Positions 1,824 through 23,235 are shown, numbered from the stretch's first letter. The stretch is DNA of 64,000 nt from an uncultured beta proteobacterium (GCA_963788035.1 CAWBFC010000004.1:17752-81751); one strand, 5' to 3'. Made by a program: numbers and translations. The notes: a model not told the origin generated them from the letters alone.

Positions 1824-4800
1824 CTACACCCCGCCGGCGACGACACGCACTGTGCTCGCACCCTGGCCCTGCCGTTCGACCAGCACCTGAACGCCGATGC
1901 GCTCCGCTAAGCCGGGAACATGTGAGATCAGCCCGACCTTGCGTCCGGCGGACTGGATCGAGTCGAGCGTTGAGAGCGCAGTCTCTAGCGTCTTCGGATC
2001 GAGGGACCCGAAGCCCTCGTCAATGAACAGCGATTCGATCCGTACCTTCTCCGAGGCAAGCGACGAAAGTCCAAGTGCCAGAGCCAGCGAAACGAGGAAG
2101 GTCTCGCCGCCGGAAAGCGATGCAGTCGAGCGAATCTCGTCACCCATGTCGCGATCGACGACCTGAAGTTCCAAGTCCTGGGCTTTCACGCGTTGCAACG
2201 CATATCGCGGTGCGAGGCTGGCCAGTTCGGCGTTGGCATGGCCGACAAGCATTTCCATTGTCATGCTCTGGGCGAACTTGCGGAACTTCCTGCCGTCGGC
2301 TGACCCGATCAGCGCGTCGAGCTGTTGCCAGACCGTAGCCTCCTTGCGCGCCCGCTCAAGCTCTCGGGCCTTGGCCTCGCCAATCGCGCGGTTCTGATTG
2401 TCTTGATCGAGTCGTTGCTTCGCGGCGCCGAGCTGTTGGCTCTGTTCCCCATGTTGTGGCTCCAGGGTTGCGAGGCTAGTTTCAATTTCAGTCAAAGGCA
2501 GCGCGGGCGCCGTCTGCGCTTCGTGGGCCGAGAGGTCCTTGTTCCGTTCTTCGACAGCCTTGGATTCGCTGGAATGCAGGCGTTCGATCTCGGTCAGCGC
2601 CGCCCGCTCCTGACGGACCCATTGTTCCTCGTGTGCAAGGCGGATGCGTAGCGTCGCGGTGTCGAGCCCGGCCACCGCAAGAGCCTCGGCAAGTGCCTTC
2701 GCCGCAAGCTCCTTGGCCTGGGTGCACTTGGTGACCTCCTGCGCCGCGATCTTGTGCGCTTCACCTCTCTTGGCGGCTTCTTCCCGAGTTCGCTTTGCCT
2801 GCTCAGCGGCGGTAGCGTGCGCCTGCTCGGAAGCCTTCAACGCAGCTTGCAGCGCCGCCTCGACTTCCGCAGCTGGTCTGCCCTGGAGAACCTCTCGCCG
2901 CTGCGCCAGCAATGCGTCCCGCTCGGAAGCTTGCTGCTTGCGCTCGATATCGAGGACCTCTCGATGCTGCGTCGATTGCTTCAGCGCGTTGGCCTGCAGC
3001 TCCAACTGCGTGTCGATGTCGGACAGCTGCTTGCTGCAGCTATCGTGGGATTGCGTGCTCTGCCGCGCCTCCTCGACCCGTACGGACCACTTCGCGACGA
3101 AGACCTTCGGGTCGACCTCGAGTTCCCCCTGCCAGCCATCGACGTCGGCAAACGCGTGAGCGAGGTTTTCGATTGTCGCGTCGAGCACTTTGCGGTGGGC
3201 AGACGCATCAGCGATGGCGCCGTTGCGCTTCTCGATCATTGATGCCACGGCGCTCTCGGCTGCCTTGAGCGAGCTGCGCGCCTTGTCGACACGGCCTGCC
3301 ACTTCTTCTTGCGACTTGCGAGCGTCCGCGGCCGTCCTGCGAAGCTGCACCAAGGCTTGATCCTGCTGGGCAATCGCCTTGGACTCTGCATCCACTTCGA
3401 GCGCTTGCGCATCCAGCCAGCCCTTGGAGTCAGTGACCAAGAGATCACCTGCACCGCCGTGCGATCGCCACTGATCTGCAGCAACGCCAAACTCACCTTG
3501 CCAGCGCTCGATCTCCTTCGCCAGATCAAGCGCCCGGCTGCTACGCGCCTCAGCGCGTGCCTTCTCGGTGGTCTCGCGCTTCTGAAGTTCCGCGTGGCGA
3601 TCGGATTGTTGACGCTTTTGCGCTTCCAGAACCGCAACGGTCGTTTCAATCGGACCTGTGCCAGGGTGGTGCGTCGACCCGCACAAGGGGCAGGGCTCGC
3701 CATCGACGAGTTGGGCGCGGTGCGCTTCAAGGCCAAGTTGGACGAGCAGGCGATCGGTGCCGGCGAGCTGCTGCGCGACCTCACTCCGGGCTGCTGCCGC
3801 TTGTCCGGCCAGAGCCTCTGCCTCCGCTGCCTCTTTCTTGGCCTTAGCTGCCTCGGCCAGCCGATCCTGACACTCTTTGTCGGCCTTCACAGCCTGTTCG
3901 CGGTGCTGCTGGAGCTTCGTGAGACGGGCGCGCAGGGTATCGAGTGCGGCTCTTCGCTCACCAAGGCTGCCGGCCGGATGCGCCGCTTCGGCGGCCTCGG
4001 CCGTGCGAACGCGCCCCTGTGCCGCCTTGGCCGTTACCTCGATACCGGCCAAGTCAAGCTGCGCCTGTACCTGCGCAGCGACCGCCTTCTCTTGGGCCTC
4101 CTGCAGGGCCGGCAGGGCCGCGCACTGCACCTTCCAACTGCCATGCGTCCTTTCGAAGGCCAGCAGCTGCGGTGCAACGCCTTCGCTCCAACTTTTGGCA
4201 AGCGCGACCACTGCGCCGTTCGCCTCGACCCAGCGCGACACCTTCTCCAGCGCTGCGCCAATGATCTTGCGTTGTTCGCCCAGAGCCCGCCCATTTTTCG
4301 TCAGCGCAGCAAGCCCGTTGTCGATGTCTGCCAGCTTCTTGTCCACGGCTTCGACAGCCTTCGCCTTCTCTACGATCGCTTGATCCAGGGACTTGGCCTT
4401 ATCGATTTGCGGCTTGGTCACTTCCAAGTCGGTGCGGCGCTGCTCATGGTCCTTCGACGCCTGCGTGAGCGCCGAGGCTGAGCGCTCGTCGTCGCTCTTT
4501 GCCTGTGCGAAGGCGCTTTCGGAAGCCTTGATCTGCTTTTCAGCAGCATCGAGTTCAGCGGCTGTTCGCGTTGCTTCCTTGTCAATGGAGCGCAGTGGCT
4601 GGACTCGTTCGATGTCGGCCAGCGCTTCGCGGCGCGGCGCAGCGTCTGTCCACTGCTGTGTGAAGGCAGCTAGCCTCGCGCGCGCCTGGGCTAGCTTGTG
4701 CCCGAGATCTGTGGCCTTGGTCCACCATGCCTTTTGTTCGCGCAGCACTCCGAGCCGGCTGGCGGTGCTGGCGACGGTCCTCCCCAGTTCGTCAACGTTC

Positions 4801-5513
4801 GCTGCCAACGCCGCCCGTGCTTCGGCGTCCAGGATCGGAAGCGCTTTCGCCGCTTCTTCCTGAAGCCGAAGCGACTCCTCGATCTCCTTGGCCTTGGCGT
4901 AGGCGCGTTTCGAGATGGCGCTGTAGAGTTCCGTGCCGGTCATGCGTTCCAACAGTTCGGAGCGTTCATCGCTCTTGGCTTTGAGGAAGGCCGCGAAGTC
5001 GCCCTGCGCGAGCAGGATCGAGCGTCGAAACTGGTCGAAGGTCAGGCCGACGGCGCGCTCGGTGGCCGCGAGCACTTCTGTCTTTGTGCGACCCAACGAT
5101 TGGCCCGATTCGTCGTCGAACAGTTGAATCTCCGACTGCTGGAGCTTGCCGCCCACCTTGCTTCGTGCGCGCCGTACTGACCAACTCGCGCGGTAGCGGC
5201 GCCCATCGGTACCAACGAATCGGACCTCGGCCAGGCCGTCGGCCGTGCCCCGACGCAACAGGTTGCGCGGGTCGTGTACGCCCAACGACTCGTCGGGCCC
5301 GTCCGGGATCTGGTAGCCGGAATTCGACTCCAGGCGGGGTGTTCGGTCGTACAGCGCCAGGCTCAGCGCGTCGAGCAGCGTGCTCTTGCCTGCGCCGGTG
5401 GGGCCGGCAATGGCGAACAGGCCCGCCTCGGCGAGGGGGCCGTGCTCGAAGTCGAGGTTGAAATCACCGGCCAGGCTGGCGAGGTTGCGCCCGCGGATCT
5501 GGAGAATCTTCAT
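1824..5513 (-). CDS. sbcC: SbcC/Rad50-family SMC-like ATPase (about 1229 aa)
   Basis: ORF-track 1824..5807 was trimmed to ATG 5513 (MKILQIRGRNLASLAG). That ATG overlaps the sbcD stop as ATGA. Motifs seen: Walker A GPTGAGKSTLLDAL, a very long A/E/Q/K-rich coiled coil, a central zinc hook CPLCGSTHH, signature LSGGETFLVSLALALGLS, and Walker B LFIDEGFGSLD. Confidence 0.9.
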   Translation of the reverse strand: MKILQIRGRNLASLAGDFNLDFEHGPLAEAGLFAIAGPTGAGKSTLLDALSLALYDRTPRLESNSGYQIPDGPDESLGVHDPRNLLRRGTADGLAEVRFVGTDGRRYRASWSVRRARSKVGGKLQQSEIQLFDDESGQSLGRTKTEVLAATERAVGLTFDQFRRSILLAQGDFAAFLKAKSDERSELLERMTGTELYSAISKRAYAKAKEIEESLRLQEEAAKALPILDAEARAALAANVDELGRTVASTASRLGVLREQKAWWTKATDLGHKLAQARARLAAFTQQWTDAAPRREALADIERVQPLRSIDKEATRTAAELDAAEKQIKASESAFAQAKSDDERSASALTQASKDHEQRRTDLEVTKPQIDKAKSLDQAIVEKAKAVEAVDKKLADIDNGLAALTKNGRALGEQRKIIGAALEKVSRWVEANGAVVALAKSWSEGVAPQLLAFERTHGSWKVQCAALPALQEAQEKAVAAQVQAQLDLAGIEVTAKAAQGRVRTAEAAEAAHPAGSLGERRAALDTLRARLTKLQQHREQAVKADKECQDRLAEAAKAKKEAAEAEALAGQAAAARSEVAQQLAGTDRLLVQLGLEAHRAQLVDGEPCPLCGSTHHPGTGPIETTVAVLEAQKRQQSDRHAELQKRETTEKARAEARSSRALDLAKEIERWQGEFGVAADQWRSHGGAGDLLVTDSKGWLDAQALEVDAESKAIAQQDQALVQLRRTAADARKSQEEVAGRVDKARSSLKAAESAVASMIEKRNGAIADASAHRKVLDATIENLAHAFADVDGWQGELEVDPKVFVAKWSVRVEEARQSTQSHDSCSKQLSDIDTQLELQANALKQSTQHREVLDIERKQQASERDALLAQRREVLQGRPAAEVEAALQAALKASEQAHATAAEQAKRTREEAAKRGEAHKIAAQEVTKCTQAKELAAKALAEALAVAGLDTATLRIRLAHEEQWVRQERAALTEIERLHSSESKAVEERNKDLSAHEAQTAPALPLTEIETSLATLEPQHGEQSQQLGAAKQRLDQDNQNRAIGEAKARELERARKEATVWQQLDALIGSADGRKFRKFAQSMTMEMLVGHANAELASLAPRYALQRVKAQDLELQVVDRDMGDEIRSTASLSGGETFLVSLALALGLSSLASEKVRIESLFIDEGFGSLDPKTLETALSTLDSIQSAGRKVGLISHVPGLAERIGVQVLVERQGQGASTVRVVAGGV

Positions 5514-6754
5514 GCGGCCTCCGGGTCGGCCTGCGCCTCGCCAAGCAACTGGTGGTAGGCGGCCAGCAGATCCGCCGGCGGCTCGCCTTCGTGTTCTCGG
5601 GCCCAACGCTGGCGCAGCACATCTTCGGGCTGCAAGTCGTTCAAGGACGCCTTGGGCAACGCATCGGCCAACGCCTGGCCGGTCCCGGTGTACCGGGTGG
5701 AGATGCGCGCGAGTCGCACGCCCTTGCCCTCCAGGGCCTTCTCGATCTTCGAGCGCAAAGCGGGCTCCGGCTGTTCCAGCAAGACCGGCACTTCGATGAT
5801 CGGCCACTCGTCCGGCGGCAGATGGGTGCGGCTGGCCATGGCCACGAGGGCGGCCTCCACTTCCGCAAGCGGGCTGGCTTTGGTCGGCACGCGCAACAGA
5901 TCCACCTTGCGGGGGATGGGCTCGCTCGCGACCGACACAAGCTTCCCGTCGTGGATGTCCACTACGCAGACCTGATGCAGGTAGTCGATCTCAGCCATCG
6001 ACAGTGGAATCGGCGAGCCGGAGTACCGTATCGACCCCCGCGTGACCACTTGCGCCAGGTGCAAGTGGCCGAGCGCGACATAGACCAGCGACTCGGGGAA
6101 GAGATCGGCCGGCAGCGCGTGCTGGTTGCCGCCGAGGATCTTTCGCTCCGAAAGCTCCGAGATCGCGGTGCCGGTCATGTACAGGTGGCCCATGGCCAAC
6201 AAGGCTTGGCCCGGGGCCCGCACACTCTCGGCATGCGCGATGGCGTCCGCGTACACACGCCGCACCCCTTCGACCAGCGCATCGACGCCTTCCTCCTTGA
6301 TCACCGGGAGGTCGGCAGGGCGGAGGAAGGGCATTGCGACAACCTTGGCCACTTCGATGCCCGCCTTGTCCTTGAGCGGCACGATCAGCTTCGCGTAGTC
6401 GATGCCCCCGCCGTCGCTGCGCGGCAGGCCCCCAACGACGCGAACGCCGAACGCATGGAGCAGCGGTTCTGGCGCATCAAGGCGCGACGCAGAATCGTGG
6501 TTGCCGCCAATGAGCACGATGTCCAGGCCGGGCACGCGCCGGCGCGCCGCCGCCAGGAATTCGTAGAAGTCGGCCTGCGCTTCGGCCGACGGATTCGAGG
6601 TGTCGAAGATGTCGCCCGCGACAAGCAGCGCGTCGGCCGCGAGCGCTTCCAGCCGGCCGAGCAGCCAATCGAAGAAGGCCAGGTGCTCGGCCCGCCGCGA
6701 AATCTCATGCAGGGTGTGGCCCAGGTGCCAATCGGAGGTGTGAACAAGCCTCAT
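5510..6754 (-). CDS. sbcD: SbcD/Mre11-family nuclease
   Basis: Trimmed to ATG 6754 (MRLVHTSDWHLGH). Phosphoesterase motifs present: DWHLG, AGDIFD, GGNHD, AMGHLYM, ALGHLHL. ATGA overlaps occur at both ends (6751-6754 and 5510-5513). Confidence 0.9.
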   Translation of the reverse strand: MRLVHTSDWHLGHTLHEISRRAEHLAFFDWLLGRLEALAADALLVAGDIFDTSNPSAEAQADFYEFLAAARRRVPGLDIVLIGGNHDSASRLDAPEPLLHAFGVRVVGGLPRSDGGGIDYAKLIVPLKDKAGIEVAKVVAMPFLRPADLPVIKEEGVDALVEGVRRVYADAIAHAESVRAPGQALLAMGHLYMTGTAISELSERKILGGNQHALPADLFPESLVYVALGHLHLAQVVTRGSIRYSGSPIPLSMAEIDYLHQVCVVDIHDGKLVSVASEPIPRKVDLLRVPTKASPLAEVEAALVAMASRTHLPPDEWPIIEVPVLLEQPEPALRSKIEKALEGKGVRLARISTRYTGTGQALADALPKASLNDLQPEDVLRQRWAREHEGEPPADLLAAYHQLLGEAQADPEAA

Positions 6755-8691
6755 CGAACCCACTCCCGCCAGGCTTCGAAAATCATCACCATCGCCAGGG
6801 TGTCCAGCTCGCAGTAGCGGCGCAGCGCATCGGCTACCTTGTCGCGCTCCAAGGTGTCGGTTTCCTCGAACTGGAATCGTGCCCACGCGGTGGTCGCCGC
6901 GCCGCCCTGGGCGATTTCCATGTCGTCGTCCGCCTCTAGGCTGGCCAGGGCCTCCGGTGGCAAGTCGTCGAAGACCTTGGGTAGCAGGTCATACGGATTC
7001 ACCGGCGTGCCGGCACGCTCCTGCCACCACTGTTGCGCGTCGAAGTTGAGGCTGGGAATGACGCCCGGCACACCATAGATCGGCTGGCTGTAGCGTTCCC
7101 GCAGGTAGTTGGACGCAGCCATCACCGCAGGCAGCACCTTCTTGATCGACGAGCTCCCCTGCGTGGCCGGATGGAAGAAGGCCTTGCGCGCCATGACACA
7201 CATGTCGTACATCGCTCGCGGCCCTTCGCGCTCGCCGTCCCTCGTGACTGAGAGCAGAAACTGACGAATCTCTTCGGCGTCGGCCGGCGCGTTGGGATCG
7301 TTGTCGAGTTCGGCAAGAACCGCGCGCAGAGTTGTGTTCTCGTGCGCGGTCCACATGAAGATCGTTCCATCTTGGCCCACCGCCGCTCGCAGCGCGCGGA
7401 CGAAGTCGTAGTTGGGCGAGAAGCCGCGCGCCGTGCTGAGAAATTCGTGTGCGTGCGTGACCGTGCCGTCGCGGTCGACTCGGTGATGCGAGAACTGGAA
7501 CGCGATGTTCGCGTACGGACGCTGTCCCGCGAAGAAGGGAATGGCCACGCGCGCCGTCTCGAAGTCGATAAAGTGCAGCGGGAACGTCCAGGAAGCCATT
7601 TCGTGGCGCATGAAGTCGCGGTCGATGAAGAATTCATCGCCGCCAGGCCACTGGCCACTGACCTGCATCCATTGACGCTGGCTCGTCGAGAGGCCACCTT
7701 CGCCAGCCTTGAGCTTTAGATCGTCGGCAGTGACGTCGCGGATCGAGAGCACGCCTTTCTCGATGAGCTTGTCCTTGCCCCGGAAGTTCGCAATGTCCAG
7801 CACCGTGCCGGCGTCGACACGTGCGCGGTTCCAGGCTTTGGCCTCCTGCCAGCACTCGTGGAAGCCACTTCTCAGCGTTGAGGCCTGGTCCGCACGGAAC
7901 TCGCATGAGGCGCAGGTACTGCTGATCGTCGGTGGAATCTTGCGGTCGGCCGCGTAAGCCTCGGCAAGCTGCAATGCTCGCCTGGCGAAGCCGTCCTGAG
8001 CCGCGCCGAGCATCTCGTCGACGAACACGTCCACTGGCGCCGCCGTCAGGAACGGCTCGCCAATGGTCGCCGTAGTTGTTCCGGGGGCGACGATCACATG
8101 CTGGCGCGATCCCTCGATACGCTGGATCCGAAACCGCTGGCTGAGGCCGTCGACGGTGCATGCCTTTGTCTTGTCCGTCATCATCAGATAGGCCTTGATC
8201 CGCCAGTGGGGATAGGCCAGCTTCAGAACGAACTTCTGGAACGCCACGTCCTCCAGGTAGGGACGCATGCCAGACACCCAGCCGCCGCGTGCTCCCTTGA
8301 AGACAAACGGGTCTGTGGAGTCGAAAGACTTGGCCTTAACCTCGATCAGGTCGACTTCGTCGCCCACCTTGCGCAGAACATCCACCCGCACCAGATAAGG
8401 CCCGGCTGCAATAGCCGCCTCGTACAGCGTAACCGTGTGCTGTTGCAGCAGATCCTGGGTTCGGGCGAGCGCTTCGGCATTGCCGGACGCAGTAACTTCG
8501 ATTCCGCCCGGGTACAGCAGCTTGGCCAGTTCGCCCACCTGGAACCCGCCATCGGCAAGCGCAGCAAGGAACTCATCATCGAGTTTCGTGTTCGCATATT
8601 CAGGCTTGCCGGTGTAAAACAGCTTCGTTGGACACTCCTGTGCCAGCGTGAAACGCGACTTGGTCAGGTATCGAGCGGTGGGCAACGTCAT
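6751..8691 (-). CDS. DUF2779-like protein: an N-terminal PD-(D/E)XK-type nuclease motif fused to a C-terminal DEDD/RNaseH-like region
   Basis: Contains YLTKSRFTLAQECPTKLFY, a PD-(D/E)XK-like motif DVLRKVGDEVDLIEVKAKS, and a Cys cluster TCASCEF...HECW. It then has FPLHFIDFETARVAIPFFAGQRPYANIAFQFSHH, which I recall as typical of DUF2779 proteins. The ORF-track start at 8730 is a TTG. ATG 8691 has a GGGAAG purine tract about 9 nt upstream. Confidence 0.7.
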   Translation of the reverse strand: MTLPTARYLTKSRFTLAQECPTKLFYTGKPEYANTKLDDEFLAALADGGFQVGELAKLLYPGGIEVTASGNAEALARTQDLLQQHTVTLYEAAIAAGPYLVRVDVLRKVGDEVDLIEVKAKSFDSTDPFVFKGARGGWVSGMRPYLEDVAFQKFVLKLAYPHWRIKAYLMMTDKTKACTVDGLSQRFRIQRIEGSRQHVIVAPGTTTATIGEPFLTAAPVDVFVDEMLGAAQDGFARRALQLAEAYAADRKIPPTISSTCASCEFRADQASTLRSGFHECWQEAKAWNRARVDAGTVLDIANFRGKDKLIEKGVLSIRDVTADDLKLKAGEGGLSTSQRQWMQVSGQWPGGDEFFIDRDFMRHEMASWTFPLHFIDFETARVAIPFFAGQRPYANIAFQFSHHRVDRDGTVTHAHEFLSTARGFSPNYDFVRALRAAVGQDGTIFMWTAHENTTLRAVLAELDNDPNAPADAEEIRQFLLSVTRDGEREGPRAMYDMCVMARKAFFHPATQGSSSIKKVLPAVMAASNYLRERYSQPIYGVPGVIPSLNFDAQQWWQERAGTPVNPYDLLPKVFDDLPPEALASLEADDDMEIAQGGAATTAWARFQFEETDTLERDKVADALRRYCELDTLAMVMIFEAWREWVR

Positions 8692-8754
8692 TTCTGTTCT
8701 TCCCTGCAGGTTGTTCTTGCAATCCGTCAACGGCGCTACGGGCGGCTTTCCTGT

Positions 8755-9666
8755 CTACGCTGTGACGATGTTCTTCTTCATGTAGTCCATCGAGAGGTGC
8801 TCAGCGCCGGCGTTCATTTGCGCTTCGAAGTCCTTGCGGTGAACGCGGTACATGAAGTCGAAGACGAGTGGGCTGGCTACTCGGTGGTTGTAGATGGCGT
8901 CCTGCAGCTCGCGAGACCGGTCGGCCGATTCGTGTGGTGAAAGACCATCGACCGCCGACTTCCACAACTTCTCCGACTCTGCCTTCAGTCGCAATAGCGT
9001 TTCGACGGTGTCGCGCTGGCGGGCGCATTCACGCAGCACCCAGTTCACCACGGGCATCGCTGGCACCAAGACCGTCAACACCAACGCATCCACCTTGAGG
9101 TCGGTGGCCAGGCTGTACCCGATGAGTAGCACCACGAGCAGCAGCAATGCACCCTTCAAGACACGGCCATAGCTCTTGCGCACATTGCCGTCGTACAAGA
9201 GGTTCTCACGCTGGCACATGATGCGGCCGATGTGCAGAGGAACCTTGCCCACGGCCACGGGATACCAGTCGCGCAGCTGCGCCTCGTGCTTCGGATCGAG
9301 CGTCTTGGCCGAAAGCCTGTACACCTCTTCAGGGTCTACGTTGGCGCCAACGAGGAAGCTGTTGCCCCGTATCTCCAGGACCTCGCAGTCGAAGTCCTCT
9401 TGAAGCTTGGCGGCGTCCTTCATCTGGGCCCTGTGCCATCGGTCCATGAGAACCACTTCGCACAGCCCGAAGAGAATGGCTGCCACTGCGACGTAGGACC
9501 TCGCGGCCGGATAGAACGTAGCAACGGCGAGGCTGATGACGGGGAGCAGAAGAGTCCCCAGGACGATGGCGCCCTGGTATCTCTTGGCGGTCCAGTAGAT
9601 GCGGCGCCGGGCCCGAACCAGAGAGAGCATTCGAGGTTCGTTTTGCTTGGTGACAATCGAATTCAC
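8755..9666 (-). CDS. S-4TM-type four-transmembrane effector (CBASS effector candidate)
   Basis: Two pairs of TM helices are present: GAIVLGTLLLPVISLAVATFYPAARSYVAVAAILFGLCEVVLM and GALLLLVVLLIGYSLATDLKVDALVLTVLVPAMPVV. They flank a soluble segment containing LQEDFDCEVLEIRGN. The start is set at GTG 9666 (GGAG 7 nt upstream) rather than ORF-track 9825. Confidence 0.65.
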   Translation of the reverse strand: MNSIVTKQNEPRMLSLVRARRRIYWTAKRYQGAIVLGTLLLPVISLAVATFYPAARSYVAVAAILFGLCEVVLMDRWHRAQMKDAAKLQEDFDCEVLEIRGNSFLVGANVDPEEVYRLSAKTLDPKHEAQLRDWYPVAVGKVPLHIGRIMCQRENLLYDGNVRKSYGRVLKGALLLLVVLLIGYSLATDLKVDALVLTVLVPAMPVVNWVLRECARQRDTVETLLRLKAESEKLWKSAVDGLSPHESADRSRELQDAIYNHRVASPLVFDFMYRVHRKDFEAQMNAGAEHLSMDYMKKNIVTA

Positions 9667-9676
9667 TTGCGTGCTC

Positions 9677-10150
9677 CTATCGCGCCGGTCGGTTGGCCTT
9701 CGGTCTTGCCCATCGCTTGTTCCGCCGCTCGGGGTGGGCCCCGCCTCCTGCCCACACGTCTGTCGCGAGCCATTCTTCGAAGTAGTCGAGCCACTCTGCT
9801 GCCCACGGTAGGTACGTGTCGTCAAGTCTCATTGACTGCGACCACTCGCCCGCCTTGGGCAACCAGAGGCAAAGCTTCGTGCCCCGGCCGTCATGGGGGT
9901 AGATATGCGGCAGCTTGCGACCTGGAGCCAGCAGCCGGGGGTCAGGCTCCAAGACAAAAAGCTCGGGGAACCTGGCTACATAGAGCCTTAGCAAGCATCG
10001 ATACACCCGCGACAGCGGCGTTGGCGCCACCTTGAAGCCGAACCGGAGTTCCCTGCCCTGCACGAACTCCAACGTCGCTTCAGGCCATGCGAGGGCCTTC
10101 AGCTCAGCGTGCCGCTGTGCAAGGTTGAGAGCGCGGATTGGCGGTCTCAC
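9677..10150 (-). CDS. Prokaryotic E2 (UBC-fold)-like protein, the CBASS type II 'short' accessory
   Basis: 158 aa from GTG 10150, which overlaps the cyclase stop as GTGA. The core LPHIYPHDGRGTKLCLWLP resembles the E2 HPN...G-x-ICL catalytic-Cys region. It is followed by PWAAEWLDYFEEW. The ORF-track extension to 10465 lies inside the cyclase gene. Confidence 0.6.
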   Translation of the reverse strand: MRPPIRALNLAQRHAELKALAWPEATLEFVQGRELRFGFKVAPTPLSRVYRCLLRLYVARFPELFVLEPDPRLLAPGRKLPHIYPHDGRGTKLCLWLPKAGEWSQSMRLDDTYLPWAAEWLDYFEEWLATDVWAGGGAHPERRNKRWARPKANRPAR

Positions 10151-11412
10151 GTGACCGGACCGCCGAAGTAGGTGTGGCCACGCGCGGGCGCGACTACAGC
10201 AAGGCTGCCGGCAGCGATGAAACTCGCTCTGCCCAACACACGGTTGGACTCCCGCCGTTGGGCCCCACGCTGGAGCACAGCTTGGCCAGCACGATTCCCG
10301 AAGGCCCCCTCCATGGCTTTGACGACGACGTCCATGCCCTTGTTGCCATCGATGGCAGCCTGCAACGCAACCAAGTCCGCCAACAGCCTTCTGTGCCACT
10401 GCACGAACGCCTGCTGGCGCTCGCGCGTGTTCATGGACTCGGCAAGGTTGTCCGACTGAGCGCATGGGTTCATCAGCACCCAGCGCTCATCACCGCCCAT
10501 TAGTGTTTCGCGCTCGAACAGGTTCGGCACCAGTTCCACGATGTCGAAAAGCAGGTCCAACGGGCCATCGTGCGGCTGGGGCGCGAGGGCGGCATAGGCC
10601 TTGGCGAAAAGAGTCGTCAAGAAGACCGACGTCGGGGCCAATTCCTTGCCTTTGGCGTGGCCTGCGAAGGAGTTGTTCCGGTGTACCTTGCCGAGTTGAA
10701 CGTACCTGCTGAGCAGCCGACCGAACACCTGCGCGGCATCAGGCAATGGCTCGACGTCCGCCTTGCGTACGGAGTCCATGGCGAAGTTGAGTGATTCGAC
10801 CATCCTGAACTGCGGCGCAATCCGGGCAACTTCGTCGAAGCCGAGGCAATAGCCCTTGGGGTTGGTGGAGAGGTAGCGCCGGAGGTCTCGGTCAGGAATG
10901 CGACCGTGATGCTGACCGTGCGGGAGCGCGAAGGCAGGGTCGTCGATGACTGGCGCGAAGTCGGCGCGCATGCCACCGGCATACACGAGCGTCACGCACC
11001 GGTCCCAGCGCTCGATCCCCAGACCGTGCCGCTGGGCGTACCGGTTCAGCGCCGTGAAGAGATGCTGAAGCAACACTGCCGCACCCTTGTCACCGCCGTA
11101 GCGGGTGAGCGCAGCGCGCGCCAGGCGCGCCACAAGGTCGATATCGAAGCCTTCGCGCTCGGGGTCCATCGGACGGACGATGGTGCCCAGTGGGCGTGAA
11201 CCTTGCGCATGCACGTGAGTCAGCAGGCCATCGAATTCCGGGCACTCGGTCAAGTAGTCGCCGGTGGCGTTGTAGGCGCGCTCCAAGTCATCGAGCTGTG
11301 TCTGGGTCGGCTCAAACGCCCTGCCGACGGCCTCGGCGAGGTACGTAAAGCGGGCCGAGGTGTCGGCGGTGACGTGGCGGGCCCGGAAGCCGGCGAGGTT
11401 GTCGCGATTCAT
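10147..11412 (-). CDS. CD-NTase / SMODS-type nucleotidyltransferase (CBASS cyclase)
   Basis: GSRPLGTIVRPMDPEREGFDIDLV matches the pol-beta G[SG]-x(n)-[DE]-x-[DE] motif. A further acidic candidate sits in GGMRADFAPV. The protein is 421 aa and sits directly upstream of the E2-like and 4TM genes. Confidence 0.75.
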   Translation of the reverse strand: MNRDNLAGFRARHVTADTSARFTYLAEAVGRAFEPTQTQLDDLERAYNATGDYLTECPEFDGLLTHVHAQGSRPLGTIVRPMDPEREGFDIDLVARLARAALTRYGGDKGAAVLLQHLFTALNRYAQRHGLGIERWDRCVTLVYAGGMRADFAPVIDDPAFALPHGQHHGRIPDRDLRRYLSTNPKGYCLGFDEVARIAPQFRMVESLNFAMDSVRKADVEPLPDAAQVFGRLLSRYVQLGKVHRNNSFAGHAKGKELAPTSVFLTTLFAKAYAALAPQPHDGPLDLLFDIVELVPNLFERETLMGGDERWVLMNPCAQSDNLAESMNTRERQQAFVQWHRRLLADLVALQAAIDGNKGMDVVVKAMEGAFGNRAGQAVLQRGAQRRESNRVLGRASFIAAGSLAVVAPARGHTYFGGPVT

Positions 11413-11456
11413 CTCGAGGGCTCCTGCGGCGCGCTGCGCGCTTCAACAAGCTGGTT

Positions 11457-11774
11457 TCAGATGTGGCCGAGAAGCTGGTAGGCGCGCCCAGTCCGAGCGG
11501 CAATGACGCCGCAAGCAATGAGGAATAGCGCGACGCAGAAGCCGAAAGCGCTCTCCGGCATCCACCAGGACAGGTACATGGGCAGCACCTCGGCGAGCTG
11601 AACGTCGGGGCGGGAGTGGGTTGCCATACCCTGCGCCACCGATACCGCAGTGGTTGCCGCGGAACCGACGAGCCCGGCCACCAGAAGGAAGCCACCCGCG
11701 CGGGTCAACGCCACGCCAAGCGAAACTAGCCGGCGCGGTTCGCCTAGGAAGTGTTCCTGCAGTAGGTCGAACAT
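11457..11774 (-). CDS. Small two-TM membrane protein (105 aa)
   Basis: ORF-track 11457..11861 trimmed to ATG 11774 (MFDLLQEHFLGEPRRL). Hydrophobic spans are GGFLLVAGLVGSAATTAVSVA and SAFGFCVALFLIACGVIAA. It starts 7 nt after the preceding small ORF. Confidence 0.5.
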   Translation of the reverse strand: MFDLLQEHFLGEPRRLVSLGVALTRAGGFLLVAGLVGSAATTAVSVAQGMATHSRPDVQLAEVLPMYLSWWMPESAFGFCVALFLIACGVIAARTGRAYQLLGHI

Positions 11775-11781
11775 GGCCGGC

Positions 11782-11958
11782 CTACTTCTTCTCGCGCCGG
11801 ACGCCCTTGAACGGCGTCTTGTCGCTTGTCTTGACGTCGAGGAAGCGACCGGTTTCGGCATCGCGCTTGACGTAGTGACCGGACGGCGTCACCGTCTGAC
11901 TGCGTTGCTTGACGGCGCCGACGCGGTGGCCGTCGCCTGGGGGGTTGTTCTTGGCCAT
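11782..11958 (-). CDS. 58-aa basic protein (below the ORF-track cutoff)
   Basis: My own translation: MAKNNPPGDGHRVGAVKQRSQTVTPSGHYVKRDAETGRFLDVKTSDKTPFKGVRREKK. It runs from ATG 11958 to TAG 11782-11784 with good GC3. It is the first gene of the minus-strand string leading into CBASS. Confidence 0.5.
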   Translation of the reverse strand: MAKNNPPGDGHRVGAVKQRSQTVTPSGHYVKRDAETGRFLDVKTSDKTPFKGVRREKK

Positions 11959-12028
11959 GCTGACTCCATGTAGACGTACAGAGCATATTACATGCTCATT
12001 TTGATTATGTCATGGAATCCACCAGAGC
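11959..12028. promoter_or_regulatory. AT-rich divergent intergenic region; probable promoters/operator for the CBASS string and the WYL regulator
   Basis: This is the most AT-rich stretch of the island (gtacagagcatattacatgctcattttgattatgtcatgg). It contains inverted hexamers CATGTA...TACATG. No -10/-35 elements could be assigned with confidence. Confidence 0.3.
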
Positions 12029-13003
12029 ATGCCGCCTACGCCAACGGGCTATCATGTCTGGATGACTGAAGACTTGGCTGAACGCCGCCGGCTCGACCTT
12101 GAGCGCCTACCCCTGGTACAGCGGGAGCGCCTCTCGCACATCGACTTCAAGCTGTACTTTCTGGGTGAGCTGCGACGCGCTGATGTTGTAGAGCGCTTCG
12201 AAACGGGCCCCGCGGGCGCCACACGGGACATCGCCCAGTACCGGGAAATCGCGCCGGAAAACCTGGATCTCGACCAAACGACCAAGACATACCGCCCCAC
12301 TCCCGCATTCAGTCCGCTGTTCGAACACTCGCCCCAACGGGTCCTCACTGCGTTGTCACAGGGATTCGGGGAAGGGATCGGCGACCAGTTGCGGCCAATG
12401 GTTCGGTGCGAGTTCCCGAACATGCTGTGCCTGCCAAAAATGTCGGTGCTTGCGCCGATTACCAGGGCAATCAACCGGGGGAAGGCCGTCCGACTTGGTT
12501 ACACCTCCGTCGATAGCGGCTGGACCGAACGAGAGCTTGTTCCGTTGGCGTTGGTCAACATCGGCACTCGCTGGCATGTACGGGCCTTTGACCGCAAGAG
12601 CAAAGATTTCCGTGACTTCGTGTTCACCCGAATGGAGACGCCGACTGTGCTGGAGGACAGCCCGGTACTGGCGGAAGAGACAAGCGAGAACGACGACCAG
12701 TGGAATCGAATCATCGAACTTGAACTTGTCCCCCACCCCAAGCATCCGCGCCCAGAAGTTGTCCGTCTGGACTACGACTTGCCCCCTGATGGCGTCTTGC
12801 ACGTCAGAGTACGAGCAGCAACAGCGGGCTACATGTTGCGGCGGTGGACAGTGGATTGCTCGCCAGACCACAGCCTTGGAGGACTCGAGTACGCGTTGTG
12901 GCTACGTGACCCCCTCGCGCTCTACGGCAGCAACGTCTATCTCGCTCCCGGCTACAAGGACCCCAACCCGGAAAGGCCCGCAAGGACCATCCGAGCGCTT
13001 TGA
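12029..13003 (+). CDS. WYL-domain transcriptional regulator (CapW/BrxR-like)
   Basis: Has an N-terminal HTH-like segment RERLSHIDFKLYFLGELRRADVVERF. The WYL-type segment is LVPLALVNIGTRWHVRAFDRKSKDFRDFVFTRM, followed by a C-terminal extension. It is divergent from the CBASS operon. The start may instead be Met-12 at 12062. Confidence 0.7.
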   Translation: MPPTPTGYHVWMTEDLAERRRLDLERLPLVQRERLSHIDFKLYFLGELRRADVVERFETGPAGATRDIAQYREIAPENLDLDQTTKTYRPTPAFSPLFEHSPQRVLTALSQGFGEGIGDQLRPMVRCEFPNMLCLPKMSVLAPITRAINRGKAVRLGYTSVDSGWTERELVPLALVNIGTRWHVRAFDRKSKDFRDFVFTRMETPTVLEDSPVLAEETSENDDQWNRIIELELVPHPKHPRPEVVRLDYDLPPDGVLHVRVRAATAGYMLRRWTVDCSPDHSLGGLEYALWLRDPLALYGSNVYLAPGYKDPNPERPARTIRAL

Positions 13004-13110
13004 CGCGGGTATGTTGGCGTGCTGTGTGGCCGTCGAATTGACATCCGGGGGTGGACAACTACCGGTGGCAATCCGCTGATCTGTTGGCGGCGAACGCAGA
13101 AAACACTGGC

Positions 13111-14517
13111 CTACAAGTTCATGCCTTCAGCGTCGTGCGCTGCCGCATCGATCTTCGCCTTGCCCTGGACGATGGCCTCCCTGGCTGTTTCGCCGCGTAT
13201 CCAACATCCCAGCATGTCCGCCCAAACTTGCATGAGGACCCGCCTCGGCCCCGACAGCCGCGCATGGTTGTAGGCGGCGGCGACCTGGTCCTTCTTCTGG
13301 TGGGCTAGGCAGGCTTCGATCAAGGCCTCCGGAAACAGCGCGTCGTTGAGCCGTGACGAGAACGTCCGGCGCAGATCGTGAACGGAGACCGGTAGAAACT
13401 GCTCCTGGTCTGGCTTTCGATCCTCATTGATTCGATCCACCGCCGCGGCGATTGTCCGGTTCAGCGTGGCCTGGCTCAGAGGCTCGGCCGAGTCATAGCG
13501 GCTCGGGTGCACGTATTTGCTCGACGGAAAGCAGGTTCTGAGCGTCGTCAGGATGTCGAGCGCCTGCTCCGCGAGGTAGACCGTATGCGGTTTACCCGCC
13601 TTCATCCGCTCGGCCGGGATCGACCACTGCGCCCGTTCCCAGTCCACTTCCGACCAGGTGGCGCCGATGAACTCGCCTTTGCGAACACCCGTCAGCAGCA
13701 TGAACCGGACAGCCAGCCGCAACGTCGGCGCGGTACCGGTCTGCTCAAGTCCGTCGAGCAGGGCCTTGATCTCGTGGCGACTGAGGTTGCGCTCGCGGGG
13801 GACAAAGGTCGCATAGGCCTTCCGTGCGAGCGCTTCGGCGGGGTTGTCGACCTCCACACCTTTGCCGGCGGCGAACCGGTAGACCTGCAAGACCAGTTCC
13901 CTGGCGTGCACGGCCGGACCGGGCCCTCGTTCAGTCTTCACGTGATCGAGCAACTCACCCAGCGCGACCGGCTTGATCTCGTCGAGGTTCAGCTTGCTGA
14001 ACGGGCCCGCCAGGATGCGGTTGTAGATCGAACGCCGCAAAGACAGTGTGCTGTCGGCGAGCCTCTCGGCTCCGCTCTTGACGTCTGACTTGAACTCGAA
14101 GTACCGCGTCGCCCATCGCCCGAAGCTCATGGCATCGGCGCTCTCGCTGCGCTGCTCGACCTTGGCCCGTGCCGGCGACCGCCCTGAGCTGACATCGACA
14201 CGCGCCCGGGCCAGCAGAAGGCGCGCCTCCTCCAGCGTCACGTCCATGCCGTAGGCCAGATGTGATCGCTGGGCATGGCGCGCCACCGGCTCATGGCGAC
14301 CGATGGTCAGGGTCTCGCGCCGGCCACCCAGCCGGTAGTCGTAGCGGAAGGACCGGCTGCCGCTGGGCGCGATGACGACGTAAAGGCCATTGCCGCCGTC
14401 GCTGACCTTGTACGTACGTTCGCGGGGCGGCAGGTCGCGCAACTTGGCGTCCGTCAAAACCTGTCGCGTCTTCGAGCTTGTTGGCCCGCCGCGAGCCCGA
14501 TCTACCGAGGTGTCCAT
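13111..14517 (-). CDS. int: P4-type tyrosine integrase (DUF4102 N-terminal arm-binding domain)
   Basis: Contains LTDAKLRDL...YKVSDGGNGLYVVIAPSGSRSFRYDYRLGGRRETLTIG. Catalytic region has VHDLRRTF, LAHQ and AAYNHA (Tyr). Trimmed to ATG 14517 (MDTSVDRA). Confidence 0.9.
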   Translation of the reverse strand: MDTSVDRARGGPTSSKTRQVLTDAKLRDLPPRERTYKVSDGGNGLYVVIAPSGSRSFRYDYRLGGRRETLTIGRHEPVARHAQRSHLAYGMDVTLEEARLLLARARVDVSSGRSPARAKVEQRSESADAMSFGRWATRYFEFKSDVKSGAERLADSTLSLRRSIYNRILAGPFSKLNLDEIKPVALGELLDHVKTERGPGPAVHARELVLQVYRFAAGKGVEVDNPAEALARKAYATFVPRERNLSRHEIKALLDGLEQTGTAPTLRLAVRFMLLTGVRKGEFIGATWSEVDWERAQWSIPAERMKAGKPHTVYLAEQALDILTTLRTCFPSSKYVHPSRYDSAEPLSQATLNRTIAAAVDRINEDRKPDQEQFLPVSVHDLRRTFSSRLNDALFPEALIEACLAHQKKDQVAAAYNHARLSGPRRVLMQVWADMLGCWIRGETAREAIVQGKAKIDAAAHDAEGMNL

Positions 14518-14550
14518 GAGATCTCCGATCCACTGCCTGTCGCAGGACCG

Positions 14551-14628
14551 GGATACCGTCATGGGGTCTGACGGTATCGCCGCAGGCCTGCAAGCGTAGG
14601 TGCTCGGATACCGTCAAATCAACCGTCA
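14551..14628. repeat. Cluster of (GGAT)ACCGTCA motifs between int and guaA; candidate arm-type recombinase/RDF binding sites
   Basis: ggataccgtca occurs at 14551-14561 and 14606-14616. Its inverted copy tgacggtatc is at 14569-14578. A shorter accgtca is at 14622-14628. Confidence 0.45.
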
Positions 14629-14743
14629 GGACGCCTGGGACTGCGCTGGATCGCGCGGGACGACTTTGGACGCTAAGTCCTTGTCCCTACAGCGAAATCG
14701 GATTGTTCTGGGATCGCCGGAAACACCGTGGGACGATCTTGGA

Positions 14744-16330
<1,587 letters not shown>

Positions 16331-16461
16331 GGCGTCAGCTCGTGGCCTGCCTCAGGCCAGCGTGGAGGAGGAAAAATCGCCGTGCGTCACGCCCGCAGCC
16401 GGCCTGCGGATGCGCACCGCGCGGGTGTTGAAACGTGTCGCGGCCACACCGGCAACAGCGC

Positions 16462-18603: not shown

Positions 18604-18936
18604 TCAGCGCGGCTTGCTGGCGGCGGGCCGGCGCTGGCCGCCACCGGTCTCGCGCTGCTGGCGGTAGCGCAGCCGCCGCGCCTCTTTCGGGTCTACATGC
18701 AGGCCGCGGTAGACCTCCACGCGGTCACGGTCGCGCAGCAGCGTGCCGCCCCCGCACACGCGCCCCCAAACGCCGGTCTGCAAGCCCTCGGCAGCAAGGC
18801 CGTGCGCCTGCAGGAGCCCGCTGGCCTGCAGCGCCTCGGCCACGGTGGCGCCGGCTGCCAGGCACAGCCTGCGCTGGTCGATCACGCCCGGCGCCGGGCA
18901 GTAAACCACCTCGATCTGCAGTTCAGCGGGGGCCAT
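18604..18936 (-). CDS. rnfH: RnfH/UPF0125 family ubiquitin-fold protein
   Basis: ORF-track 18604..19179 trimmed to ATG 18936 (MAPAELQIEVVYCPAPG...VEVYRGLHVDPKEARR). It follows ratA as in the conserved ratA-rnfH pair. Confidence 0.8.
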   Translation of the reverse strand: MAPAELQIEVVYCPAPGVIDQRRLCLAAGATVAEALQASGLLQAHGLAAEGLQTGVWGRVCGGGTLLRDRDRVEVYRGLHVDPKEARRLRYRQQRETGGGQRRPAASKPR

Positions 18937-19375
18937 ACACCGCCTCGGCGCGGCGCACGAAAGAATCGACCAGGGTGTTGGCCACGCGGTCGAAGACCGG
19001 GCTGACCACGGCCTCCAGCGCCACGCTGGCGAAGGCATAGGCGAGATCGAACTCGATCTTGCAGGCGGTCTGGTCGCTGCCCGGCCGGCCCAGGGTGTGG
19101 AAGATCCAACGGCCTTCCAGCTTGGAGAAGGGGCCGTCCACCAGCCGCACTGCCACCGACTGGCCCGCCTGGTGCACATTGCGCGTGGTGAAGGCGTGCT
19201 GCACGCCCATGTAGGCCAGGCTCAGGCGCGCGGTGACGCCGTCGTCATGCGCCACCACCACCTCGGCCTGGCTGCACCACGGCAGGAACTGGGGGTAGGC
19301 CTGTACGTCGGTGACGAGGTCGTACATCTCGCGGGGCGAGTACCAGAGCAGGACCGACTTGCGCACGTGCTTCAT
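18923..19375 (-). CDS. ratA: SRPBCC/RatA (PasT, CoQ-binding-like) family protein
   Basis: MKHVRKSVLLWYSPREMYDLVTDVQAYPQFLPWC... 150 aa, divergent from smpB. Confidence 0.85.
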   Translation of the reverse strand: MKHVRKSVLLWYSPREMYDLVTDVQAYPQFLPWCSQAEVVVAHDDGVTARLSLAYMGVQHAFTTRNVHQAGQSVAVRLVDGPFSKLEGRWIFHTLGRPGSDQTACKIEFDLAYAFASVALEAVVSPVFDRVANTLVDSFVRRAEAVYGPR

Positions 19376-19438
19376 ACAATCGGCCCCATTCTAGGAGCGC
19401 GTTGAAAGGCGGCCACCCGGCCTCACCTGCGCTGAACC

Positions 19439-19906
19439 ATGGCCCACATCGCCGAAAACCGCCGCGCCCGCTACGAGTACAGCATCGAAGAACAGTACGA
19501 GGCAGGCATGGTGCTGGCCGGCTGGGAGGTCAAGGCCATCCGTGCCGGGCAGGTGCAGCTGACGGATGGTTATGTCCACATCCGCGACGGCGAGCTCTAC
19601 CTCATCGGGTGTCGCATCAACGCGCTGCGCAGCGCCTCCACGCACATCCACCCCGAAGCCGATCGCACCAAGAAGCTCTTGATGCACAAGGCCGAGATCC
19701 GCCGCCTCATCGGCAAGGTCGAGCAGAAGGGCTTCACGCTGGTGCCGCTGAACCTGCACTACAAAGGCGGCCATGTGAAAGCGGAAATCGCACTGGCCAA
19801 GGGCAAGGCCGAGCACGACAAGCGCAACACCGTCAAAGACCGCGACTGGGAACGCGAAAAGGGCCGCCTGATGCGGCACAAGGTCTCATCGGGTTCGAAA
19901 GACTGA
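19439..19906 (+). CDS. smpB: SsrA-binding protein SmpB
   Basis: [29 protein letters not shown]...[10 protein letters not shown]...[11 protein letters not shown]. Confidence 0.95.
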
Positions 19907-20196
19907 GCGCCACGCGGCGTCTTCTGGCGGGCGAAGGCGTCTGGCCGGGCTTTTCTGGCGCTGCGTGAACCCCGCATTGCGGGTGTTCCCCCTTGAAGCG
20001 AAGCCGCCGCGGGCGCCAAGATCCCCTGCGCAAAGGTTGCAGGCGGTCTGGTGCGCCTTAGCATCCGATGCATGGCCCGTCGCCTCTGACGCGCACCTTG
20101 CCGGCAGGCCGCCTTGTGGAGACTTCGACCATGCCCAGCCTCACCTGGCGACACCGCCCTGACGCGCCGACCGGCTGCACCCGCCAGCCCGCGGCC

Positions 20197-22410: not shown

Positions 22411-23156
22411 AGACGCTCCGCACGCCGCCCGCCCCGTTCGCATCCTTCGCCCTGCGACGTGCCCGGGTGGGCTGCATGCTGGCTGGCGTGCTGGCCGCGG
22501 TGGTGCTGGCGCCTCCGGCCCGGGCCCAGGCCGATGCGCTGCCGGCGGTGGTGGTGTGGGACTACGAAAACCAGAGCGCCCTGGCTGCGCCGCCTGCCGA
22601 GCAGACCGGATACCTCAAACGCGCGCTGTCCGAAAGCCTCACCGCTACCTTGCTGCAGGTGGCCGGCCTGCCGGTGGTGGAGCGCCAGCGCCTGAAAGAC
22701 TTGCTGGCCGAACAGAAGCTCGGCAGTTCGGCCCTGGCGGACGATGAGGCGCGCCTGCGGCTGGGCAAGATCGTCGGCGCCCAGCGCATGGTCTTCGGCG
22801 GCTTCTTCGTGCTGGGCGAGCAGGTGCAGGTGCATGTGCGCGTGGTCGATACCGCCACCTCGCGCGTGTTGTTTTCCGACGAAGCCGTGGCACCGCTGGC
22901 GGCGGTGATGGCGCAGGTGGGGCCGCTGAACCAGCGCCTGGCGCGCGCGCTGGGCGGGGCCGCGGGGGCCCAGGCCCGCACCGGCAGCCACGGCGCCGCG
23001 CTGTGGCAGGCCTACGACCGCGCCCTGGCCCTGGCCGATGCCGGCAGCTTTGACGACGCCATAGGCGCGCTGCAGCAGTTGTTGGCCGTAGACAAGACTT
23101 TTGTGCCCGCAGAGCGACAACTCGTGGCCCTGCTGGAACGCGCGGCAAGACGGTAA
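22407..23156 (+). CDS. Periplasmic CsgG/LpoB-like module protein with a short TPR-like tail
   Basis: Signal peptide CMLAGVLAAVVLAPPARAQA. Contains VVVWDYENQS...LPVVERQRLKDLLAEQKLGSSALADDEARLRLGKIVGAQRMVFGGF, paralogous to the caspase protein's C-terminal module. Its ATG overlaps the previous stop (ATGA 22407-22410). Confidence 0.6.
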   Translation: MKTLRTPPAPFASFALRRARVGCMLAGVLAAVVLAPPARAQADALPAVVVWDYENQSALAAPPAEQTGYLKRALSESLTATLLQVAGLPVVERQRLKDLLAEQKLGSSALADDEARLRLGKIVGAQRMVFGGFFVLGEQVQVHVRVVDTATSRVLFSDEAVAPLAAVMAQVGPLNQRLARALGGAAGAQARTGSHGAALWQAYDRALALADAGSFDDAIGALQQLLAVDKTFVPAERQLVALLERAARR

Positions 23157-23235
23157 CGCGGGCGTAACGCACCGCCGCCTACGCTGCATGCTGGACACTG
23201 CCCGAACGACCGCCTTCTGCCGCGCCCCGCTCCCC

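Follow-up and report, generated by a model that had tools for sequence, protein, structure and literature searches.

We found that a defence island in a 64,000-nucleotide stretch of DNA from an uncultured beta proteobacterium (GCA_963788035.1 CAWBFC010000004.1:17752-81751; here called the window) carries three chained minus-strand genes, which encode a predicted dual nuclease of the DUF2779 family, SbcD, and SbcC. We tentatively propose that this triad is a mobile accessory nuclease operon that processes DNA ends and hairpins. SbcCD would open such structures and DUF2779 would degrade them, with incoming phage or plasmid DNA as the probable target and a WYL-domain protein as the probable regulator. 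We put the probability of this reading at roughly 0.45. The gene order, the overlaps, the intact motifs, the co-inheritance of the three genes, the purifying selection on them, and the island setting are established here.

The DUF2779 gene lies at 6751-8691 on the minus strand and encodes 646 amino acids (aa) from an ATG at 8691; an alternative start, a TTG at 8730, would give 659 aa. It is followed on the same strand by sbcD (5510-6754; 414 aa), which encodes the Mre11-type metallophosphoesterase nuclease subunit, and then by sbcC (1824-5513; 1229 aa), which encodes a Rad50-type ABC ATPase with a long coiled coil and a CPLCG zinc hook. At both junctions the stop codon of one gene overlaps the start codon of the next by 4 nucleotides (nt) in an ATGA on the minus strand. 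We read the DUF2779/sbcD overlap at 6751-6754 as 'cgATGAgg' (TTCGATGAGG) and the sbcD/sbcC overlap at 5510-5513 as 'gcATGAag' (GCATGAAG). The open reading frame (ORF) listing and these sequence reads bear out an earlier note, made from the sequence alone, which had reported three minus-strand genes chained by ATGA overlaps. We found the same 4-nt-overlap triad again at four other loci (L082, L088, L103, and L104) and on the P0005 contig, which argues that the arrangement is more than chance. The DUF2779/sbcD ATGA junction is also retained after remnants of DUF2779 at two further loci, L083 and L089.

Pfam confirmed the assignment of all three proteins, a check that the earlier note had called for. 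The DUF2779 gene product matches PF11074 at 5.5e-22 (78.8 bits against a cutoff of 23.3). We judged the conservation of its residues in an alignment of 80 homologues at 55-96% identity. D104, E117, and K119, which make up a PD-(D/E)XK triad in ...RVDVLRKVGDEVDLIEVKAKS, are invariant in all 80. So are C20, C260, C263, and C280, whose one-plus-three spacing is like that of the iron-sulfur (Fe-S) clusters of Cas4 and AddB, and so is a DEDDy set consisting of D376/E378 (in IDFET), D471, D496, and Y626/D630. An AlphaFold2 model built from the 80-homologue alignment reached a predicted local distance difference test score (pLDDT) of 90 and a predicted template modeling score (pTM) of 0.87. Compared with the PDB by Foldseek, the N-terminal half of the model matched MGME1, Cas4, and AddB and the C-terminal half matched RNase T and 3'hExo, in both cases with weak E values of about 4e-3 and probabilities of 0.95-0.98. 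Among predicted viral structures, giant-virus "YprB RNase H-like" (Cas4+YprB) proteins matched DUF2779 over its full length (3e-10 to 6e-7), and many phage Cas4-like exonucleases also matched the model. PDB sequence and profile searches with DUF2779 gave no match; only the fold comparison gave any. From the conserved residues and the predicted fold, we assign the N-terminal half as a Cas4/RecB-type PD-(D/E)XK nuclease and the C-terminal half as a DEDDy RNase H-like 3'-5' exonuclease. Pfam found no helicase domain in the protein. The same two-domain architecture has been described for the DUF2779 family in a survey of the RNase H-like superfamily (PMC3985635) and in work on MMSYN1_0389 of JCVI-syn3.0 (PMC13621843), and a family member is quasi-essential in a minimal Mycoplasma genome (PMC13621843). 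In the published work that we searched, the family was given no tested function or defence role. It is large, with more than 5,300 clusters at 90% identity in one search.

SbcD carries the Metallophos and SbcD_C domains (Pfam) and scores 184 bits for TIGR00619 (NCBIfam), against a cutoff of 78. It aligns over its full length with Escherichia coli SbcD (PDB 6s6v_A, 1e-42), and all of the phosphoesterase motifs are aligned (D8/H10, GDIFD, GNHD, MGH, and GHLH). SbcC carries AAA_23 and SbcC_Walker_B. Its TIGR00618 score of 287 is under the cutoff of 478, and we therefore regard it as a divergent but clear family member. It aligns end to end with E. coli SbcC (PDB 6s6v_C, 7e-94), with the ATPase heads in register and the CPLCG hook on the E. 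coli zinc hook, and it has a Walker A motif (GPTGAGKST, K43), an LSGGE signature, a Walker B motif (FIDEGFG), and an H-loop (SHV). Judged by these motifs, all three proteins look catalytically intact, as the earlier note had claimed for SbcD and SbcC.

We found that the triad fits no single system catalogued in PADLOC-DB v2.0. DUF2779 had no match there, SbcD had only a marginal match to PDC-S10 (1.7e-4), and SbcC had generic SMC/ABC matches only, with a weak and partial one to LmuB (2.3e-18). The absence of any PADLOC-DB v2 match for DUF2779, together with the absence of a defence description in the literature searched, agrees with the earlier note, whose author had recognised no named defence system here.

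Complete triads were confirmed only where DUF2779 is 84-96% identical to the window's protein. Those of L082, L088, L103, and L104 are all in the same guaA island as the window's triad. The triad on the P0005 contig has other neighbours, namely, a different, divergent WYL gene, a NERD-UvrD helicase gene, and QueC/PTPS/radical-SAM genes. In one case at 78% identity (P0007, with SbcD P0138; longest contig, 7,623 nt each), the triad is inferred only. The earlier note held that a conserved non-island context, with the triad's sbcCD as the only copy in related genomes, would speak against a defence system. The loci examined showed no such context; wherever a complete triad had flanks long enough for a judgement, its setting was variable and island-like.

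The sbcCD pair has a wider distribution than the triad. SbcD relatives at 74-92% identity were found without DUF2779 in several settings. In L083-85, the sbcCD lineage is on an integrative and conjugative element (ICE) beside TraI_2 and TraG, without a complete DUF2779 gene. Other relatives adjoin recBCD and a WYL gene (L086) or AbiE and an integrase gene (L087), and one follows OLD and an addAB-like pair and lies ahead of BREX genes (L100). When relatives at 74-99% identity are counted, the mobile or island settings of sbcCD number at least six, all unrelated to one another. This sbcCD lineage is probably horizontally mobile in the genomic islands and ICEs of Burkholderiales. At 70% identity, the SbcD of L101 is in a housekeeping-like context (SelO, glmS, and EamA), and the sbcCD genes there are probably the core copy.

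The order in which these arrangements arose can be read from remnants of DUF2779. Upstream of sbcD in L083-85, L089-91, L094, and L095 is a gene for an 878-883-aa AAA_13 ATPase with a CxxC hook, which corresponds to the PADLOC candidate PDC-S06 (1e-214 and 7e-188). Between the PDC-S06 gene and sbcD there remains a decayed fragment from the 3' end of DUF2779, with a length of about 85 nt in L083 and of about 135 nt in L089. Because this fragment ends in the ATGA junction, we infer that the triad is ancestral to those sbcCD copies and that DUF2779 was displaced later. The PDC-S06 genes of L083 (7220-10004) and L089 (3816-6740) occupy the same position upstream of sbcD. They are only 34% identical to each other, which suggests that displacement occurred twice or that it occurred once and was followed by an allele swap. 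In the complete triads, the ratio of nonsynonymous to synonymous substitution rates (dN/dS) is 0.13-0.22 for all three genes, and compared with L103 the three genes have similar dS values of 0.12-0.14. The similar dS and the low dN/dS together indicate that the triad is co-inherited and constrained.

The island itself is marked by its composition, with a G+C fraction of 0.61-0.66 over the first 1-16 kb of the window and 0.69-0.73 beyond. It is integrated at the 3' end of guaA (14744-16330), and its visible boundary is the adjoining gene for a P4-type tyrosine integrase (13111-14562, minus strand; Pfam Phage_integrase and Arm-DNA-bind_3). Next comes a gene for a BrxR/CapW-like WYL regulator (12029-13003, plus strand; Pfam WYL, 7e-13), which is divergent from the gene string; its L103 orthologue bears WHD_BrxR, WYL, and BrxR_CTD. 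One or two small ORFs at 11457-11960 (minus strand), which have no Pfam match, separate it from the cyclase gene of the next system. Their L103 counterparts are 105 aa and about 58 aa, and the 105-aa ORF has a 49%-identical match in L031. The system that follows is a type II (E2-only) cyclic-oligonucleotide-based antiphage signaling system (CBASS) at 8755-11412 on the minus strand (PADLOC; gene limits from the L103 gene calls). It consists of the cyclase (10147-11412, 3.9e-190), E2 (9677-10150, 2.1e-49), and a four-transmembrane (4TM) effector (8755 to about 9666, 2.1e-117). The order guaA-integrase-WYL-CBASS-triad is shared with L103. The WYL protein heads the co-directional string of CBASS and triad genes and is a candidate regulator of it, though an uncertain member of the triad unit.

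On the other side of the triad, a Wadjet jetA gene begins about 670 nt past the sbcC stop codon (2 to about 1150, minus strand; PADLOC JetA1, 2.1e-187, positions 2-384 of the 475 in the model) and is truncated at the window's left edge. In L103, which is otherwise syntenic, RadC, CIA30, and MazG/PIN7 genes are found where the window has jetA, so this end of the island is variable. We found no direct repeat of the guaA 3' end (attachment site, att/attR) in the window or in L103; for the window, this places the far island boundary beyond the left edge. The earlier note had placed the triad in an integrase-bounded, less GC-rich defence island between a CBASS and another defence-like module. That description was borne out, with Wadjet (jetA) as the second module. 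A scan for promoters and terminators gave one site in 13.2 kb, no more than shuffled sequence gives, and is uninformative on the limits of the operon. The site is a weak sigma-70-like promoter match at 11985-12013 (minus strand) in the WYL-CBASS intergenic region, the sole one upstream of the minus-strand string. We also considered the triad as an accessory of the CBASS and rejected this; the P0005 triad has no CBASS, and in L031 the DUF2779 gene is convergent to the CBASS.

A wider survey of DUF2779, with one genome per species, yielded full-length orthologues of 44-68% identity at 80 loci, from Burkholderiales, Bdellovibrionota, Clostridia, Verrucomicrobiota, Cyanobacteria, and other groups. 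The neighbourhoods are highly variable: the commonest neighbour cluster, DUF2779 aside, was present in 16 of the 80 loci. Among 148 nearest neighbours at 73 loci, we counted 13 WYL/WCX regulators, 5 PDDEXK_4 (PDC-S26) proteins, and 3 GajA/OLD proteins; these neighbour statistics are approximate, given the core-overlap gene caller. Other neighbours included AAA ATPases, ResIII, macro/ADP-ribosylglycohydrolase genes, restriction-modification genes, and integrases. In L034, an orthologue of the window's WYL gene (61%) is directly upstream of a solo DUF2779 gene. In L031, such an orthologue (75%) is near a solo DUF2779 gene, with a CBASS of the same type between them. This locus (9992-16340, from a Rubrivivax metagenome-assembled genome) has a DUF2779 protein at 47% identity and a cyclase and a 4TM effector at 67% each, and it represents a DUF2779-CBASS-WYL adjacency that either arose independently a second time or reflects an inversion.

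A double-AAA+ protein of 700-870 aa (with IetA-like AAA matches) was encoded within about 7 kb of DUF2779 at 13 of the 80 loci. DUF2779 is near both a WYL/WCX gene and a double-AAA gene in L107 (425-3714), L020 (1837-5018), L012, L018, L028, L030, L015, and L007, and the three genes might form a module. Plasmids carry the family sparsely (12 of 72,556 records), and relatives of the sbcCD/DUF2779 lineage on plasmids are distant ones only. Plasmid homologues of DUF2779 at 24% identity adjoin WYL, PD-(D/E)XK, and OLD-like genes. The Prosthecochloris aestuarii conjugative plasmid pPAES01 (L105, record 20352-33591) encodes a 46%-identical DUF2779 protein among genes for an SOS-response peptidase, a zincin-like metallopeptidase, H-NS, a thermonuclease, and a JAB-domain protein, a set reminiscent of plasmid establishment or anti-restriction regions. 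A tblastn search of 50,697 phage records found no relative of DUF2779, and 2.9 million viral contigs held none of DUF2779 or SbcD. Taken together, DUF2779 looks like an undescribed, WYL-associated cellular gene of variable neighbourhoods that contain defence genes.

We compared the triad with known systems. With E. coli SbcCD (6s6v) it shares full-length matches of both subunits, all of the phosphoesterase and ABC-ATPase motifs, the CxxC hook, and overlapping genes. It differs in that the window copy is island-borne and mobile, its SbcC is 1229 rather than 1048 aa with a longer coiled coil, and its sbcD is translationally coupled to a third nuclease gene that precedes it. AddB belongs to the RecB family of nucleases and contains an Fe-S cluster; the predicted N-terminal half of DUF2779 is of the same class. 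In Bacillus subtilis there is a putative addB-addA-sbcD-sbcC operon (PMC1533848), which likewise has a RecB-family nuclease gene directly upstream of sbcD-sbcC and a logic of DNA-end processing. Unlike it, DUF2779 has no UvrD-type helicase motor and adds a putative DEDDy 3'-5' exonuclease, and the window locus is accessory and mobile. The earlier note had stated that housekeeping sbcCD has no third nuclease. This is true of E. coli, but the B. subtilis operon and the addAB-like copies on islands and plasmids go against it. In one such island cluster (L100, 1700-14931), which is flanked by an integrase gene and BREX genes, addB-like, addA-like, sbcD, and sbcC genes are found together with OLD. 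Another is on plasmid pBs1S1b of Bradyrhizobium septentrionale (L108/L110, record 18928-32295), which has an addB-like gene, a split addA-like gene, an AAA_13/SMC ATPase gene, sbcD, and sbcC. Accessory end-processing genes appear to travel together. We regard the triad as a variant of the addAB-sbcDC end-processing theme that lacks the helicase.

Lamassu has been proposed to descend from SbcCD, with an effector gene ahead of genes derived from sbcD and sbcC (PMC12663957). The triad resembles Lamassu (LmuA-LmuC-LmuB) in having a nuclease gene, an SbcD-related gene, and a gene for an SbcC-related SMC-like ATPase in that order and in its location in a defence island. In contrast to LmuC, the SbcD of the triad is complete, with nuclease and C-terminal domains; the coiled coil of its SbcC is full length; and DUF2779 has neither a match to the LmuA model nor the LmuA C-terminal domain. 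The triad is also a recent assembly and no ancestor of Lamassu. With its complete SbcD, its full-length 1229-aa SbcC, only a partial LmuB match, and no LmuA domain, we rejected its assignment to Lamassu. Cas4+YprB dual nucleases (COG2251/TM0106; MMSYN1_0389) share with DUF2779 the pairing of a Cas4-like PD-(D/E)XK domain and an RNase H-like DEDD exonuclease domain. The window protein keeps four cysteines, whereas MMSYN1_0389 keeps two, and it differs from this group in being linked to sbcCD in a defence island. A further likeness is to ACE1, which is reported to be a Cas4-family nuclease that cooperates with a long-A prokaryotic Argonaute (pAgo) (PMC12094033). As described there, a stand-alone Cas4-family nuclease gene adjoins and assists a DNA-targeting immune nuclease; the partner is Argonaute rather than SbcCD, and in the triad the cooperation is only putative.

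According to the model that we propose, a full-length SbcCD pair was captured by Burkholderiales islands and ICEs, and one shallow lineage would then have gained a formerly stand-alone DUF2779 gene directly upstream, joined to sbcD by a 4-nt overlap. The triad and the CBASS operon would share a transcript, or the triad would be read immediately after the CBASS genes, with the BrxR/CapW-type WYL regulator in control. SbcCD, with ATP, would recognise and open DNA ends, hairpins, palindrome-derived structures, and protein-blocked ends. DUF2779 would then degrade the exposed single strands, 5'-3' by its putative Cas4-like Fe-S nuclease and 3'-5' by its DEDDy domain, so that DUF2779 plus SbcCD would be a helicase-free counterpart of AddAB plus SbcCD. 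Because the triad is located in an island, it would probably act on incoming DNA that is linear or forms hairpins, for example, the ends of phage genomes and single strands of conjugative or plasmid origin, and its nucleases would thereby hinder the entry of mobile elements. A single pathway probably involves all three proteins, with DUF2779 as an add-on and not an obligatory subunit. Core SbcCD already behaves as a barrier to mobile DNA: insertion mutations in the core sbcD gene raise the frequency of conjugation (bioRxiv 10.64898/2026.07.06.735840), and TelN of phage N15 must inhibit SbcCD to shield the hairpin telomeres of the phage (PMC12624138).

Several observations weigh against this model. 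None of the 80 orthologue loci has SbcD or SbcC within 10 kb of DUF2779. In L107, a 75%-identical DUF2779 gene is solo and adjoins a WYL gene and a double-AAA ATPase gene, and a 69%-identical one (L081) likewise stands alone, in an island that also has Z1, DUF4420, and methylase genes. The triad is recent and rare. Relative to the probable core copy in L101, SbcD and SbcC are not remodelled (1227 versus 1229 aa for SbcC), and with subunit lengths so nearly equal they bear no mark of specialisation for immunity. In lineages without DUF2779, sbcD and sbcC remain under purifying selection, with dN/dS at 0.13-0.20; SbcCD is therefore independent of DUF2779, which is no obligatory partner. No promoter-like site was found in the 63-nt gap before DUF2779, in a scan that yields no more than shuffled sequence. 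The defence role, finally, is read from the neighbourhood, that is, through guilt by association. The earlier note had suggested counting how often the triad occurs as such. The answer was none of the 80 DUF2779 loci, with triads only at 84% identity or above (and a putative one at 78%). Conserved multi-gene defence systems are generally expected to show co-occurrence across diverse lineages, and we found none in these loci. The claim of the earlier note that the triad is a candidate undescribed defence system thus stands in part. The operon coupling, the island, and the lack of a catalogued match speak for it, and the conservation of the triad does not.

A doubtful but serious alternative is that a stand-alone DUF2779 gene and a separately mobile sbcCD pair were fused by a deletion into one transcription unit, with no functional cooperation between them. 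The absence of SbcCD from the 80 loci and the solo genes at 75% and 69% identity are what this account would predict. So are the intact, constrained sbcCD pairs in which PDC-S06 has replaced DUF2779 and the occurrence of the sbcCD lineage with unrelated upstream genes. Against this account, the 4-nt overlap is kept in every complete triad, in two different neighbourhoods; the similar dS values indicate that the three genes travel as a unit; and DUF2779, by our assignment, encodes a RecB-family nuclease, and genes of this type also lie ahead of sbcDC in B. subtilis and in other mobile clusters with sbcCD.

We consider it improbable, though less so than the readings that follow, that the triad is a mobile repair or recombination module with no part in immunity. 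Such a module would serve the island, an ICE, or the host at double-strand breaks, stalled forks, or palindromes, for example, after damage from neighbouring defence systems or at structures that arise when an element is transferred or integrated. The addB-addA-sbcD-sbcC repair operon is a precedent, and sbcCD relatives adjoin recBCD (L086) and addAB-like genes (L100). The Bradyrhizobium plasmid, with its addAB-like pair, AAA_13 ATPase, sbcD, and sbcC, is a similar case. The Prosthecochloris plasmid, with DUF2779 among SOS-peptidase, zincin, H-NS, and JAB genes, and the quasi-essential Mycoplasma member (PMC13621843) point the same way. However, known or candidate defence genes (CBASS, Wadjet, BREX, OLD, AbiE, and PDC-S06) are immediate neighbours in almost every context, and neither gene type of the lineage was found in the phage records and viral contigs searched.

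Less likely again is a broader version of the immune role, in which a modular immune system would be built around mobile sbcCD as its invariable part, the slot immediately upstream would take interchangeable genes, and DUF2779 would be a new class of effector that SbcCD activates or feeds on foreign DNA ends. In this lineage and its relatives, the upstream slot is filled by DUF2779, by two PDC-S06 ATPases, by an addAB-like pair, or by a DUF7379 hydrolase. Such a system would mirror, in present-day genomes, the path by which Lamassu is proposed to have arisen from SbcCD, with an effector gene ahead of a sensor derived from SbcD and SbcC. That the genes are an ordinary housekeeping sbcCD pair merely near an island is very improbable: SbcD and SbcC have the standard architecture and a 70%-identical relative in a housekeeping-like context, but the genes lie within the lower-GC segment between the integrase and Wadjet, relatives at 74-99% identity occupy six or more unrelated settings of mobile or island type, and we rejected this possibility on the island location and the variable contexts.

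If the operon does restrict phage or plasmids, a complete and unmodified Mre11-Rad50 machine would have been recruited as mobile immunity together with an added nuclease, and the triad would offer an intermediate, open to experiment, in the proposed descent of Lamassu from SbcCD. Should the operon serve repair alone, the finding would add modestly to what is recorded of accessory repair genes carried by islands. Apart from the triad, DUF2779 is a large family with two apparently intact nuclease domains and recurrent WYL and defence-type neighbours, a combination that recommends it as a candidate for a new nuclease that acts as a single gene in defence or in the response to damage. Two leads seem of more general interest: DUF2779 as a WYL-linked nuclease and the variable gene slot ahead of mobile sbcCD.

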